DNA from: Candidatus Aenigmatarchaeota archaeon | Lineage (GTDB): Archaea > Aenigmatarchaeota > Aenigmatarchaeia > CG10238-14 > SpSt-28 | DNA length: 18,507 bases | Direction: 5' to 3' | Assembly: GCA_032249395.1 (NCBI GenBank) | Contig: JAVVFY010000011.1 | Span: 1-18,507 of the forward strand | Program-made: the position numbers | In this document: positions 1 to 6,000 of the stretch, piece by piece | Layout of the letters: every line of letters starts with the position of its first letter | How positions within the stretch are numbered: position 1 is the first letter of the stretch

Positions 1-3000
1 TCCAAACTTTGGAACTGCAAAACGTGGATTATAGGTCATTTACAAGCAGCTATAGAAATTAGAAAAGGAAACTTCAAAAAAATAGAAAAAGTTATCATAA
101 AATCAAGGCCAAAAATAGAAAAAGGAAAATTGCAAGAAATTATAATTTTGCCTGCTTTTAGCGATTTAGCTGGAAACCTACTTTTAAATAAAGAGCTCCC
201 TTCAGATTTCCTTTTTGAGAAAGTTATTGATATAAACAATTCAGAAGTCTATCTTTTGGATGGAAGTTACTTGGGGAAATTAAGTGAGTTAAGCATTTAA
301 CCTTTTCTTTTGAATTTGAGATATGGTAAGAAAGCAATACATCCAAACTCTTCTCAATCTTCAGAAAGACTTTTCAAGAAAATATTATGTGAACCTTTAT
401 GAATCATTTGATCCTAGAAGATGGTTAAGTAGCAAGGAAGTCAAATTAGAACTAATTTGGCCAAAGAATGTTATGGAAGAATACGAAGCTTTTGAAAAAG
501 GTAAGTGTAAGTCTTTAGATTTTGCTTTTTTAATTTATTCAGATGAAGATAAATCGAATAAGCTCGAAAGAAAATATTTTCTTATTATAAAATACTCTCC
601 ATATACTTCTCAACGCTCTTCTTTAATATTTTATCCTAAAGTTTACTCTCATTCTTGTTATTTCTACGAGTTTCAGACAGTCTCTTTAGGAAAAATCTAT
701 CTAACTTGCAAACATGTTTATGCTGCTTTAAGAGAGGTAGATGCTATAGCTAAAAGATTTTCTCTTCCAGTTGAACAATCTTACTTCTATCCAAGAAGCC
801 CGTTTTTGCCAAGAAAGTTCGAAGAAATAGAGAAAAGCAAAGATAAGGCTGAAGTAAAACTTGAGAGGGCGTTCAGATTGTTAGAAGAGGAGCTATACAT
901 AAACGAGTTAGATTCTTTAAGAAGATTAAACAGAAGATTGAGGTATTTGAAAAAAGAATAAAAATCCTTTCGAAACTACCACAGGATCTTGGGTTTATCA
1001 GGTTTCCAGCCGGCTCGGGCGATTGGGAGTGGCGGGCTTACCGCTCGCCCGAAGGCTCGCGGCTTACACCCCCACCCCATCAACGTTATCGTCTATAACA
1101 GCCCTCGTCTCTCTGCCGGGTCTCCCCAACAGAGAGAATGGCCGTCTATTTTTCCGGGTGGTTTCCCCCTTAGATGCCTTCAGGGGTTATCCACTGGGGC
1201 GTGGCTGCCCGGCATGCCAAATGGACAACCGGTACACCAGAGGCCCCGGGAGCGCGTTCCTTTCGTACTTGCGCTCCCTTCCGGTCAGACGGCCAGCACC
1301 CCCAGTAGATAGCGACCGAACTGTCTTTGCCGCTGCATGCGAAGATAGAGTAGAGAGTAGACTATAGATTAAAATTTAGGTAAGTTTACGACCCGAGAAC
1401 GATACCCAATTCATCCTTAGCAAAATGCTACGTCTTTGGGTAGTGCTTCGCATGCAGTCACGACGTTCTGAACCCAGCTAACGTCCCCCTTTAACCAGTG
1501 GACACCTGTACCCATAGCCTTGAGGAGGTAAAATTTACAAAATTTTTCCATTCTTCAAAATTATGAAAAGAATTTTTCCCTTCATTACACAAATTAGCTA
1601 CTACATCTAGGATTTTATTTTTCTCAATCCCAAACCATGTTTTACTTTTCTTGGATATTCTTACTCCATCTAAGAATCTAATTTCCTTGGCAAATTTCAA
1701 TATTTCTTCTTTCTTTGTGAGTACTACTTCATTTTTCCATATCGACGGTCTAAATCCTAGTTTTTCCAGTATTTTCTTTATGAAAATCTTTAATGATTCA
1801 TTTTTAACTGTTACTTGAATTCTTTTGTTAACTATCCATAATTTCTTGGTTTTGTGCCACTTACATCCCAAAATCACTGAGCCTTCGGCGGAAAAGAAAC
1901 TTCGAATGAAACTTATTAGGTTATCAGAGGATATACTTTCTATTGATGGTAGCCTAATATTGTTGTTTTCCTTTCTTTTCCAATCTGGTATAAAGGTCTG
2001 GAGAATTTCTACGACTGTCTTGTTACAAACTCTAATGATTTTAACTTGTTTTCTATCGACTCTTTCTGTAAAATGCAAATCTCCGAATATTATCTTCATA
2101 TTATCCTCACATACTTGTATCAACTTTTCTTCTTTTGCAGCAAATATTACTTCAAAATGTCTATGTTTTTTGTTAATTCTTACGGTACCATCTGCTAATA
2201 GAAGACCAACTATTTCCCAAAACTCCTTCTTATTTTTTACCTCCTCAATTTGGCCGCTTGCAGTTGAGGGCATTCATATCACCCAATTTCTATATATTAA
2301 TTCTACACCAATATATAAACTTTATCTGGTTAAGGTTCAATAAAGAACGCCCTCAATTGCTGCACGGCCAGGAGGGGGGGAGCCGACAGCTACGCACCAA
2401 CGCGCCGGGTCAATTTGCCTGTCGCTATCTGCAAGGAAACGTAGACCCACGCAGATAGCTTTACTGTGGGCTTTCACCGGCCACGGGCCCATTATCCCCG
2501 AGGTAGCTTTTCTGATACCACCGGCCCCCATTAATGGGAACCGATGTATCGCTAACCCACGCTTTCGCGGCTGGAACCCTCGCTTTGTGGGTTCCAGTCA
2601 GCCCACCTTTTGCGTTTGCACTCTACCCCGGATTTCTTTCGGGTGAAAAACTCCCATCAATAGCTACCCCGCTAATCATTCAATCATTCGGGAGCGACCT
2701 TATCATTACGGGAGTTTTTCATGACCCGGGTGAGGTGAGCTTTGGGCCCCCTCGATATCTTTTCGAGGGGGTGCCGCCCCAGCCGAACTGCCCACTTCGC
2801 CAAGAGTTAGCCGATTGACTAACTCTTTCTAGCGCTGTCCCCTCGTCGGGTAAGCTGTAGAGTCCCAGAAGGCTGGTGTTACACTTGCCCCTCGGCCTCG
2901 GCCGAAGCCTACGCCTGATAGCGGGTCCCAGCTACTCTATGCAACCAGGACTCTACAGCAACGCCAGGCTGCAGTAAAGCTCTACGGGGTCTACGTTTCC

Positions 3001-6000
3001 CACTGGGGGTCTCCGGCCTATTCACCGGAAAGCCGATTTCGCCGGGTCCCACCCCGGGACAGTGCCCAGGTCGTTAAGCTGTTCACAGGCCGCCATTTAA
3101 GCGGCAAGGGATTATGCTACTTGTGTCGCCCTAGGCGGCGATCATTAAATCAGATGACCGCCTGAGATACGACGGTCAGAGTTACCGCCGCCGCTCTGCG
3201 GGGCTTAGCCCGGTTGGAACCGGGTTTCACACACCGCAGCTGGGCAAGCCTCAGGGACTGTACTCATCCTTTCGGACTAGCAGTCCCCTGCGTTTTTGTT
3301 AAACAGTCGCCTGGGCCTTGTCACTGCAACCTGCGGTCCCTCCCATCCTTTGTCCTCTAATGAGGACTCAGGATGGTCAAGACCACAGGCACCCCTTCTA
3401 GCGAACATACGGGGCCAACTTGCCGATTTCCCTGGGGTGGGTTCTCCCGACACGCCGTTCCCTTCTCAGGAAGCCCACCTGTGCCGGTTCTCGGTACGGT
3501 CTAGGGGGATCCTTGTGGATTGCCTTTTCACCGGCTCCAGGGATCGGCCGAACTTCCCATTCGGGAAGCCCATCCTGCCTTCAGCCTCTTCTCCTCATTA
3601 CGAGACTCCGAGGCCTTAAGCAGTTGGCTTGCGTCGGCCTACCCCGAAGCGTCGGCAATCCACCCTAGCCTTGCGGCACGTACCCCCTAGGTTCCGGAAT
3701 ATTAACCGGATTCCCTTTCTCGGGCACGCCGATTAAGGGTGCCCTTAGGACCGACTAACTGCCGGCTGACGAACATTGCCGGCAAACCCTTGGGCTTCAG
3801 GCGGCCGGGATTCTCACCCGGCTCGGCTGCTACTTTCGGCGGGATCTGCATTGCTGCGTGGTCCACTGGAGCTCACGCCCCAGCTTCTGCCCACGCAGCA
3901 CGCCCCCCTACCAGGCCTCTTCGGCCTCCGGGGTCTCGGTGGTCGGCTTAGTCCCTTCCATCTTCAGGGCACTACCCCTCGGCGGGTAAGTTGTTGTACA
4001 CTTCTTAGCTGATGGCTACTTTTAGGCCCACAGCCCCGCTGTCTAAGGGGTAGTACCCCTTCGTCGTTTAGCCGACACTTAGGGACCTTAACCCCGGTCT
4101 GGGTTGTTCCCCTCACGAGTGCCGAGCTTACCCCAGCACTCATTTTCCCGCCGTCTACGGGGCTGGCGGATTCGGAGTTTGACAGAGAGGCTGAGCCTTT
4201 CGGCCCTTGACCCCTCGATCAGTAACTCTACCCCGCCAGCACCCTCGGGCGAGACTGCTCTGTGGAGCATATCGGGGGGAACCGGCTATGAGGCCGCTCG
4301 ATTGGCTTTTCACCCCTAATCCTGGCTCACGAGAGGGATTGGCATCTCACCACCTCTATCGGGCCTCCATCCCCCTTTCGGGGGACTTCACCCTGGCCAG
4401 GATTAGATCGCGGCCCTTCCGGTCGTAGGCGAGTGACTTCAGGCACTTTCATACCCCGCGCCTCGCTCTTTCGAGCTGCGCGCAAGTCGCTTTCGCTTCG
4501 GCTTCGTGGTTTCACCACTTAACCTCGCCACTCGCCTACACTCCCCGCCCCGTTTTTCCAAACGGACGCCAGGACGGTGTAAGCTCCCTCTCGCTTTTTC
4601 AGCTTCGAGGGAGCACCTTTCCCGCCCTGGCAGACTATAGCCACCTGGTTTCAGGCTCTTTTAATGGGAGACAAGTAGGTTTTCCTTACCAAAGGGATTG
4701 TTTGCAAGAATGTCAAAGCATTTTTATTCCTTATTCTTAGACGAAACGCATTGTTAGAATGTTTATAGAGATAGGGTCCGTTAGAGTTTATCCCCAATTT
4801 ATTCAACATTAGCTTTAAGTCTGATAAAGGTGGACATTCTGTTTGATTATTCCATGAATGGTATACATAGATTACCGGTTTACCATCTTCAAGACATATA
4901 CTCCCTTCTGCATCAACAAATCCTGCAATATACCATTTCTGAATTTCTGGAGGAGCTTCTAAGATTAATCTTGGGGTTCCCCACCATTTTTGTGTTTTAT
5001 TCGGTGGATACTCGAAAACTTTTGTAAAGAAAAGAAATAATGGTTTTGAATCTACTTGCCATACGAAATCTTCCCCACTTTTCATTATTTTTACTTTTTT
5101 GTTAAATAGATCCTGTGAGATGCGATTTACTACATTTTCTAAGAATGCTTGATCTTTCTGATAGATTCTTACCTTATAACTTCTCTTGGCTCTGCTTAAA
5201 TTTCCGTCTCTAAGTAGACCAACAAAGTATGCAAGAGGAGGGGTAAGTTTCTTGGGGATAGCTATGCTGTTTTTCCTTAAATTCATCTCGAGAGTAACGT
5301 TTATGGGTATTGATGGATGTATTGGTATATCTATGTCTGGATTCATATTTATATATATTGTTTTATAGTATTTAAAGCTTACTACTTGTCTCCTTTCACC
5401 CCGTTTGCACGGTGCTTTTCAGCTTTCCGTCACCGTACTAGTGCGCTATCGGACTTGGGATGTGTTTAGGGTTGGATGTTAATGCCACCCAGCTTCCCAC
5501 TGCCAAACCAGGCAATGGTACTCAGGATACCTGGAATCTTCCTTCCCTCCTTCCCCTACGGGACTATCACCCTCTAAGGTGGGGCATTCCAGCCCACTTC
5601 GGGTCGGAGGGTTAGGAAGTGCCCAGGTCCTGCAACTCCACATTCCACTTGGCTTATCGCCAAGCGGTTCGGTTTGCCCTCTGCCGGTTTCGGTCGCCCC
5701 TACTCCCGGCATCTCGTTTGATTTCTCTTCCTGCGGGTACTGAGATGCTTCACTTCCCCGCGTCCCCCTTCCAGGCTTTTAGGCCTGGAATGCCGCTTAA
5801 CGCGGCAGGATTCCCATTCAGGCATCCGGGGGTCTACGGCTGCATGCGCCTAACCCCGGCTTATCGCAGCTTGCCACGCCCTTCCTCGGCTCCCAAGCCG
5901 AGCCATCCACCAGGTGGCGTACCTCCGGCCGGAAACCCTTTGACCCCAAGATCCTGCGGTAGTTTCATCTAATGGTCTCTTAAAGACAGTTCGTTCTTCA

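Follow-up and report, generated by a model that had tools for sequence, protein, structure and literature searches.

An Aenigmatarchaeota 23S rRNA gene with eight BHB introns, two LAGLIDADG nucleases and short introns that look like guides

We propose that the 23S rRNA precursor of this Aenigmatarchaeota archaeon, whose 23S rRNA gene is unlinked, would be cut by the splicing endonuclease at nine BHB motifs and rejoined by RtcB. Eight of the cuts would release introns and the ninth, in the terminal stem, would make a 3028-nt circle of the 23S. RNA of close strains shows the joints and circles; the enzymes we infer. That the insertions are BHB introns removed by splicing endonuclease and RtcB, including the LAGLIDADG intron at site 503 (L503), is well supported. 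The whole account, in which nine-BHB splicing and the circle are joined by homing introns, a nuclease unit spread over two introns and retained short guide-like introns, we consider probable. Its unusual parts are a nuclease in intron L2542 that looks to take its start signals from the adjoining intron, and short introns resembling guides for the archaeon's own ribosome.

Intron map and BHB geometry

The window, the whole stretch of 18,507 nucleotides that was analysed, carries all features described here on its minus strand. The 23S pre-rRNA unit occupies 995..5938 (4944 nt), which leaves 3028 nt once eight introns (1916 nt) are subtracted. Mapping on E. coli rrlB bears out the insertions that an earlier note had placed after E. 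coli positions 503, 1927, 2234, 2306, 2477, 2534, 2542 and 2597; the sites stand, but the coordinates given there mostly took in flanking exon bases, and the L2597 intron is 132 nt long. It was also right that the Rfam annotation cuts the gene at 2247, where the match ends, with a second LSU piece at 1017-1298. Rfam truncates relative locus L103 as well, and such genes are therefore mis-annotated. Three features lie beyond the earlier note, namely a split nuclease gene, the guide-like introns and a whole-23S circle.

In order of transcription, L503 (4661..5394; 734 nt, domain I) has HBh' ends with a 4-bp central helix and a 12-bp inner stem; L1927 (3123..3167; 45 nt) lies at the Desulfurococcus mobilis/Aeropyrum pernix intron site; L2234 (2796..2828) is a sporadic 33-nt hairpin; L2306 (2638..2722; 85 nt) has a box C/D layout; and L2477 (2415..2465; 51 nt) has a relaxed BHB with three of four helix pairs. 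L2534 (2258..2357; 100 nt), which has no ORF of its own, is separated by an 8-nt rRNA micro-exon (2250..2257; E. coli 2535-2542, helix 91) from L2542 (1514..2249; 736 nt), where a 4/4 helix is joined by a 14-bp stem, and L2597 (1327..1458), again with a 4/4 helix, is the last. The central helix is thus complete in seven of the eight, and outer helices are mostly absent; these structures agree with the archaeal BHB, defined by a 4-bp central helix and two 3-nt bulges at the junctions, with the relaxed HBh' form allowed. A strict BHB test was passed by 352 of 563 real insertions, overlapping loci being counted twice, compared with 85 of 3000 shuffled inserts.

A group I or II catalytic core was considered and ruled out, as the short introns offer too little room, ORFs fill the large ones and the window has no group I/II Rfam match, the general Rfam model being insensitive (PMC6125680). 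The archaeal group I introns that Nawrocki et al. (2018, PMC6125680) describe from LSU genes of DPANN likewise carry nucleases, with one Aenigmarchaeota record, and the LSU sites given in the available part of that paper (1923, 1931, 2500 and 2593) are none of these eight. The host genome encodes two EndA genes as well as RtcB. One EndA matches PDB 4fz2, the ARMAN-2 epsilon2 enzyme, over 370 residues (E 3e-89). Relaxed BHB motifs require EndA of such types, according to the available part of PMC5829648.

Splice joints and circles in RNA

RNA was drawn from four runs out of 24 listed (likeness 96), as contigs of other strains that carry no transcript start, strand or level; absent cover within some introns was not counted as evidence. 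Where the earlier note had all eight joints spliced, seven occur in RNA contigs and L2597 is present only as 10-18-nt ends. Among the joints listed, those of L1927 and L2477 appear in all four runs, L2306 in three and L503 in two. The L2234 joint, previously credited to one run with a 28-base side, is found here in two of the four, with sides of 74 and 28 nt. A double joint of L2534 and L2542 that retains the 8-nt exon is listed in one run, and loose ends agree with it in the other three. The RNA joints coincide with the predicted BHB cuts, in RNA that is from other strains and thin at L503, L2234 and L2597.

Circles had been claimed for both large introns. For L2542 the claim holds in two runs rather than three, with a back-joint from 2249 to 1514 at depth 5.7 in X1 and 2 in X4, and circles of the other seven introns, L503 included, were not seen in the four runs. 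A permuted contig of the L503 intron attributed to X4 was not reproduced: X4 depth is zero at 4684-5371, and run codes or settings may differ.

The earlier caution that intronless rRNA can give such joints is justified at L503 and L2234. Relative G001, with 52 exon differences in 3028, has neither intron, and L068 lacks L2234; one other case of an L2234 intron is found, in G115. Runs X1 and X2 have no variant alleles in common with the window-like contigs L065 and L066 (0/17 and 0/20), but mostly agree with L068 (11/16 and 13/16). With RNA from other strains, and with near-identical genes in which these introns are missing, the joints at L503 and L2234 prove little and could come from intronless strains. 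One might go further and suppose that some of the short insertions go unspliced here, as expansion segments or assembly artefacts, with the RNA joints supplied by intronless relatives; the near-identical intronless alleles at those two sites would suit this, as would the L2597 joint, which matches E. coli sequence and is present only as short ends. We regard it as very improbable, given that all eight introns recur in two metagenome contigs, that one 1601-nt X2 contig (~98.6% identity) skips several introns at once and that the sites fall within essential rRNA cores. L1927, L2306, L2477 and L2597 are, moreover, also found in relatives G001, G004 and G006, though not in the gene of the genus-labelled relative G003 (74% identical).

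The 23S as a whole is closed by a back-joint from 5938 to 995, present in all four runs at depths like those of mature rRNA. The flanking arms of the processing stem (5' arm 5939..5966, 3' arm 972..994) fold into the central helix and bulge of a canonical hBHBh', and the predicted cut is the RNA back-joint. Circular 23S rRNA is already known: the archaeal circles of Shi et al. (2026, PMC12918454) are, like this one, BHB-directed and highly abundant, and their Table S1 includes Aenigmatarchaeota. The circle here differs in being assembled across eight internal splice joints as well; in the available main text of that paper introns occur only in the references.

Nucleases of the two large introns

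LAGLIDADG proteins in both large introns, as earlier claimed, are confirmed by Pfam; the two show no similarity to each other (E 0.15). That of L503 is a two-motif nuclease of 231 aa (4651..5346; LAGLIDADG_3, E 1.4e-7) whose stop codon lies 7 nt into the 3' exon, and the C-termini of homologues P0002-P0008 fit translation into the same exon. Its predicted structure (pLDDT 88.9) matches the I-DmoI fold (E 2.4e-9, TM 0.78 by target), and with two motifs, a two-domain fold and acidic residues D47 and E147 invariant in nine of nine sequences it corresponds to a monomeric I-DmoI-type enzyme. A TATA-like box inside L503 (5369..5376), 22 nt before the ATG, scores 11.1, at the upper quartile of 48 genome promoters, for which spacing peaks at 18-23 nt; it is likely to be a leaderless internal promoter.

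An intronless 503 joint had been reported for relatives, and it is empty in all 29 covering loci (28 genomes, from a 40-relative sample). A pattern for the intact site matched 63 of 371 genomes, two fetched matches (G187 and G188) having no 23S; that for the interrupted site matched nine, from which G195, G227, G357 and G358 were dropped as non-rRNA, leaving five, i.e., four besides the window's. The central helix is paired in six of six L503 introns, with one two-sided change (G121), and ORF-less remnants occur in G139 and G309. The L503 nucleases form one clade (SH-aLRT 100, nine rows, quick tree), and a best match at the same site was found for 47 of 51 nucleases. These data suggest that L503 is a recurrent homing site served by one site-specific nuclease clade, and that the intron would be a mobile homing element carrying an I-DmoI-like nuclease with its own TATA box. 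No relative of this nuclease was found among 25 candidate stretches in viral contigs, and a look-up for look-alikes of the stretch in other genomes gave nothing.

The archaeal rRNA BHB/LAGLIDADG introns of D. mobilis (I-DmoI), Pyrobaculum, Aeropyrum and Staphylothermus, as far as described in the available part of PMC4496867, are alike in their BHB ends, circles, ORF-bearing and hairpin forms at one site, site-specific nuclease clades and I-DmoI fold; the present introns differ in their DPANN host and in having 86 23S site labels, against 13 reported 16S loci.

The second nuclease has a less usual layout. Its two-motif LAGLIDADG ORF (1491..2273; 260 aa, by Pfam) begins in L2534, crosses the micro-exon and L2542 and ends in the exon that follows; there is no start codon in its own intron, and the ATG (2271-2273) sits in L2534, across the 8-nt exon. 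L2534 also contains an SD-like motif (2279-2283) and a TATA-like box (2312-2319) whose score of 9.7 is reached by 6 of 1000 shuffles. Across 47 nuclease introns, a start before motif 1 is missing in only two L2542 introns and one frameshifted L503 copy. An ATG 16 nt before the 3' end is present in five of five L2534 introns that adjoin L2542 and in none of ten that do not, and TATA-like scores of at least 7.7 occur in four of five paired L2534 introns against none of five short solo ones, where the five pairs are kin, three of them nearly identical, and the promoter matrix was trained on a motif defined in the same analysis. The paired L2534 of G025 lacks a TATA-like box, its score being attained by 737 of 1000 shuffles, and that of G147 has one though its L2542 is without an ORF. 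The upstream ATG may be retained for structure, since it is part of the L2534 terminal stem.

The micro-exon would serve three ends: it gives one BHB its bulge base, forms the central helix of the following BHB and contributes codons to the nuclease ORF. A mixed BHB could not skip it, as the central helices of the two motifs mismatch. A forced order of splicing was considered and dropped: helix 91 competes, yet the 8 nt can accommodate both HBh' motifs with no overlap, so that the order need not be forced. Splicing intermediates of L2534 and L2542 are not visible in the RNA.

The L2542 protein finds its best other-site match in an L2534 nuclease, which fits co-movement of the I-PogI kind. In the pair Pog.S1205/Pog.S1213 of Pyrobaculum oguniense, as described in the available part of PMC4496867, an ORF-less intron is followed after 8 nt by one that encodes a nuclease, I-PogI; this enzyme cleaves at the site of the upstream intron, and the two are mobilised together. 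Compared with that description, the upstream intron here seems to contribute, in addition, a promoter, an SD and the start codon.

Most likely, then, the L2542 nuclease would be transcribed from the L2534 promoter and translated from the L2534 ATG on RNA unspliced at L2542; splicing severs the ORF from its start, and expression and splicing would therefore be mutually exclusive. The reading of I-DmoI depends on the intron circle, and it is conceivable, if unlikely, that the L2542 protein too is made from its circle, from a rare start just before the junction, with the ATG and TATA-like box of L2534 incidental. The circle exists in RNA, it can be read in one frame for 253 codons (the junction gives rise to a stop two bases beyond), and the circle of G001 carries an in-frame ATG that precedes the junction by 13 codons. 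That start is not shared by the window, since intron lengths differ modulo 3; upstream of motif 1 the window circle has none of ATG, GTG and TTG, apart from these offering just an ATT seven codons ahead of the junction, and all three pairs with recognisable ORF sequence, including the decayed G025, have the upstream ATG in frame. Less probable still is that the ORF is a decaying, unexpressed passenger and L2534 an ordinary remnant: decayed L2542 copies in G025 and G147 and an RNA depth of only 0-6 within L2542 would fit, but the frame is intact and both motifs are kept between G000 and G001 at 64% protein identity, and the full 260 aa recur in 9 of 15 cluster members among those listed.

Guide-like introns and the phylum

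In euryarchaea the pre-tRNA-Trp intron is a box C/D guide, and eukaryotes have intronic snoRNAs. L2306 resembles these in being an excised intron with C/D boxes and guides for its own host RNA; it differs in that its host is 23S rRNA, that most of the D-like boxes are non-canonical and that its guide role is a predicted one. The layout comprises C, D', C' and D boxes, with each guide placed one base ahead of D or D', and a Watson-Crick +5 target. The D' guide (2689-2698) is predicted to target G2251 and the D guide (2662-2671) U2438; 21 and 28 of 30 introns, respectively, pass the guide test, against 13 and 8 of 3000 shuffles, and guide and target change together in L140 and L042. Fibrillarin and Nop5 genes are present in the host genome, and no SpoU methylase was found in it (89.5% complete). 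We conclude that L2306 probably directs 2'-O-methylation of G2251 and U2438 as a box C/D guide.

A guide role at C1920 is possible for L1927, through a candidate single box C/D-type guide (3155-3164; box 3150-3153): 14 of 20 introns pass, against 10 of 2000 shuffles, with a tie under a stricter cut between this and a rival target at 2632 (8 against 8 of 20), and the guide also builds the intron's own stem. L2477 is antisense to 23S 2051-2065 (window 2434-2448) and 2608-2617; its 15-nt duplex is reached by none of 200 shuffles, and the two matches are kept in 18 and 14 of 24 short L2477 introns. For L2234, L2534 and L2597, guide-like matches were rejected, shuffles reaching them in 97, 169 and 199 of 200.

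Guide function would explain why L2306 and L1927 persist across the order. Alternatively, the matches in L2306, L1927 and L2477 could be functionless relics of intron origin, left when nearby rRNA was copied in inverted form. It would suit relics that L1927 matches its own flanking exon, that C/D boxes are missing from L2477 and that no match above chance is present in L2234, L2534 and L2597. We doubt this reading, as L2306 keeps two guides, each one base ahead of a D-like box, with targets 55 and 132 nt away, and these are kept across families with matching changes in guide and target, where relics should drift.

The earlier note set the domain I site apart from known sites, and this case fails because BHB introns occur in all six 23S domains and L503 recurs. 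Across 70 near-complete 23S genes of the phylum, strict introns number 14, 37, 13, 44, 139 and 18 in domains I to VI, those of domain I lying at eight sites in 11 genes, and the 86 site labels likewise span all six domains. Nine genes exceed the window's strict count of seven, one gene has 34-36 insertions, strict introns reach 20-22 in one gene, and exons in the phylum go down to 7-9 nt. Eight introns and a domain I site thus fall inside what is normal for the phylum. Crenarchaeal introns also reach beyond domains IV and V, as in the A. pernix 23S intron at about 1085 (domain II).

In the standard picture BHB introns are few, occupy about a dozen sites and belong mostly to Thermoproteales. 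For Aenigmatarchaeota we suggest, as an evenly balanced proposition, that rRNA introns form a gene-hosting layer in which a single gene can have more than 20, some domesticated as guides and neighbours cooperating, one lending promoter and start codon to the nuclease of the next, across an 8-nt piece that belongs to the rRNA, signals splicing and codes for protein. A nuclease gene spread over two introns would, if true, be a new mode of selfish-gene expression, throttled by splicing. Domesticated guide introns would, if true, be a prokaryotic parallel of intronic snoRNAs, and they predict that methylation of G2251 and U2438 tracks the L2306 intron. This bears on how rRNA introns persist after nuclease loss: the phylum shows that nearly any 23S region accepts an intron, and some introns may persist by serving the host.

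Eight introns and their joints in RNA

The genome studied here (753 kb, 89.5% complete) carries its 23S rRNA gene on the minus strand between the gene for ribosomal protein S2 and an open reading frame (ORF) of 212 amino acids (323-961, plus strand) that converges on the 23S 3′ end and has no match in Pfam; the 16S gene is unlinked, on a separate contig. In the 90% cluster of the genome's splicing endonuclease, one member bears the label Ca. Aenigmatarchaeota. Alignment to E. coli rrlB bears out the eight insertions of an earlier note, with last exon bases 503, 1927, 2234, 2306, 2477, 2534, 2542 and 2597, after which we name the introns. 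All are on the minus strand and in bulge-helix-bulge (BHB) register, namely L503 (4661-5394), L1927 (3123-3167), L2234 (2796-2828), L2306 (2638-2722), L2477 (2415-2465), L2534 (2258-2357), L2542 (1514-2249) and L2597 (1327-1458), with a central helix of 4/4 throughout, save for 3/4 in L2477. Since outer helices are mostly absent, we regard them as relaxed HBh′ motifs. Our strict BHB test was passed by 352 of 563 real inserts vs 85 of 3000 shuffled ones. Genes are present for RtcB and for two EndA proteins, one alpha-like (185 amino acids; L069:1474-2031) and the other of 393 amino acids (L070:1189-2370), matched along its length by PDB 4fz2, the ARMAN-2 epsilon2 splicing endonuclease. L2534 and L2542 open with seven identical bases (within 2348-2357 and 2240-2249, respectively) and their stems close alike, less so in the related genomes G001 and G025, which hints at shared origin or homogenisation. 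Near helix 98 (1110-1170) there is an insertion of about 30 nt relative to the Rfam model, not called an intron, which RNA contigs cross.

The earlier note also held that all eight joints are spliced in hot-spring RNA and that both large introns occur as circles. In the four of 24 listed runs examined, seven joints are found: L1927 and L2477 in all four, L2306 in three, L503 and L2234 in two each, and L2534 with L2542 as a double joint in one, the 8-nt exon (2250-2257) being kept in between; the L2597 joint is visible only as 10-18-nt ends. The circle of L2542 stands (two of four runs), but that of L503 was seen in none. One run (X1) holds an unspliced 757-nt contig over the L503 border at depth 6.5, vs 1585 for the L503 joint. 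The runs contain strains other than that of the window, and because close relatives do without L503 and L2234 (both in G001, at 98% exon identity; L2234 at locus L068), the joints of these two are no proof of splicing. The remaining joints are convincing, if weaker at L2597, since L1927, L2306, L2477 and L2597 are common to G001, G004 and G006. The 23S rRNA itself is circular, with a 5938-to-995 join in all four runs at a depth comparable to mature rRNA and at the exact cut predicted from a canonical BHB in the terminal stem; circular archaeal 23S rRNA was already described by Shi et al. (2026), whose Table S1 covers Aenigmatarchaeota (PMC12918454).

Intron load across the phylum

In Aenigmatarchaeota, with 371 genomes available, we mapped 70 near-complete 23S genes, a non-random census in that 13 were picked via nuclease matches and many via an intact L503 site. 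The median is 3 strict introns per gene, with none in 11 genes and more than the window's 7 in nine; for the 56 genes chosen without regard to nucleases the median drops to 2, and five of them exceed 7. Strict introns occupy 86 site labels, some 1-2 nt apart, over all 23S domains. Domain I holds 14 at eight sites. The eight-intron gene is real, but what first drew attention to it is commonplace in the phylum, where neither the number of introns nor the domain I site is exceptional; what is unusual is the intron load of the phylum as a whole. The 23S gene of genome G309 (locus L103, G309:C53:12000-21500), counted against four closer references, has 34-36 insertions of at least 25 nt, mostly 40-60 nt, of which 20-22 are strict; an Rfam scan of this locus cut the 23S match off early and found no group I or II introns.

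Five further 23S genes, at L160 (G324), L115 (G210), L159 (G302), L169 (G147) and L045 (G028), have 12-23 insertions, 10-15 of them strict. The shortest exons between introns are of 7, 8 and 9 nt (2577/2584, 2548/2556, 2534/2542 and 2440/2449; loci L052, L041, L048, L169 and four L2534/L2542 pairs), with none shorter among well-paired neighbours, in agreement with the 7 nt needed by two HBh′ motifs. The 16S gene of the studied genome (G000:C13, locus L168) carries six insertions or more: one of 838 nt near 707, which may be two introns, and others near 801, 908, 1213, 1368 and 1513. Divergent or multiple 23S copies (73-74% identity) in G006 (L063, G006:C9), G003 (L055, G003:C18) and G147, which gives four intact-site matches, are probably mis-binned contigs.

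L503 as a probable homing site

L503 encodes a protein of 231 amino acids with two LAGLIDADG motifs and an I-DmoI fold. A TATA-like box lies 22 nt upstream of its ATG, the genome's own spacing peak being 18-23 nt, and the mRNA is probably leaderless, initiated within the intron and unspliceable. The C-termini of all eight homologues found are consistent with reading into the 3′ exon. The site is occupied in five of the 371 genomes, with a nuclease in three (the one studied, G121 and G064) and as ORF-less remnants in G139 (63 nt) and G309 (54 nt), and the intact site pattern is matched in 63, at least two matches being false. The nucleases at L503 form one clade, and the central helix is paired in all six introns compared, with a two-sided change in G121. 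L503 is thus probably an ordinary homing site, at which introns are gained and decay. At L067 and L068 the allele is one base longer (735 nt) and the nuclease frame is disrupted near its start, which is decay in close strains. Another site, L782 (L068 2961-3789; also L044, L050 and L056), shares the 5′ exon helix and bulge letters of L503, and its nucleases belong to a different clade, close to those of L2542 and L2534. Crenarchaeal 23S introns lie at about 1085, 1809, 1927, 1952, 2552 and 2601; L503 is likely a new site. In the full-text literature searched, in which older and subscription papers are thinly covered, neither the L503 intron nor intron loads of this size in Aenigmatarchaeota had been reported, and nothing was found on a gene whose start codon lies in the rRNA intron next to it, or on 23S introns that contain guide RNAs.

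A nuclease gene probably split over two introns, and introns as candidate guides

The L2542 nuclease ORF (1491-2273, minus strand) has no ATG, GTG or TTG ahead of its first motif, whether read in the linear intron or the circle, and such a start is missing in only three of 47 nuclease introns, the others being the G001 orthologue and one frameshifted L503 copy. An in-frame ATG lies at 2273, within L2534, and the frame continues across the 8-nt exon. All five L2534 introns adjoining L2542 have this ATG (in L068 the contig stops just beyond) vs none of ten solo ones, although these five are kin and the ATG belongs to the intron stem. In the window this ATG is preceded at 38 nt by a TATA-like box and at 5 nt by an SD-like motif; TATA-like scores reach promoter level in four of five paired introns vs none of five short solo ones, but the paired intron of G025 has no such box, and the G001 circle has an in-frame ATG of its own. 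On balance we find it fairly probable that the gene is split over L2534 and L2542. Transcription would then start inside L2534, and the nuclease would be translated only while L2542 is unspliced. The layout has a precedent in the Pog.S1205/S1213 intron pair, likewise spaced by an 8-nt exon (PMC4496867).

Other introns look like guides, by counts that include kin and are not independent. L2306 has two guide-like stretches, which put G2251 at +5 in 21 of 30 introns and U2438 at +5 in 28 (13 and 8 of 3000 shuffles). No other position scores as high as these two, and changes in guide and target coincide in two genomes; we consider the intron a strong candidate for a box C/D guide for its own 23S rRNA. 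L1927 is directed at C1920 in 14 of 20 introns, equal to a rival target, 2632, at a stricter cut; its candidacy is slightly favoured. Both G2251 and C1920 are known 2′-O-methyl sites. Fibrillarin and Nop5 genes are present, and no SpoU methylase was found in the 89.5% complete genome. Of 24 L2477 introns, 18 are antisense to 2052-2072 and 14 to 2604-2620 (53 and 83 of 1200 shuffles); this intron has no boxes and is possibly a folding aid. Within the genus, L2597 introns retain kink-turn-like motifs in their interior and a conserved run ahead of the closing stem, possibly as an H/ACA-like or other small RNA; no antisense match of the window's L2597 exceeds chance.

This 23S gene leads on to three less common features: BHB introns throughout the phylum, a nuclease gene that is probably split over two introns, and introns that probably guide the modification of their own rRNA.
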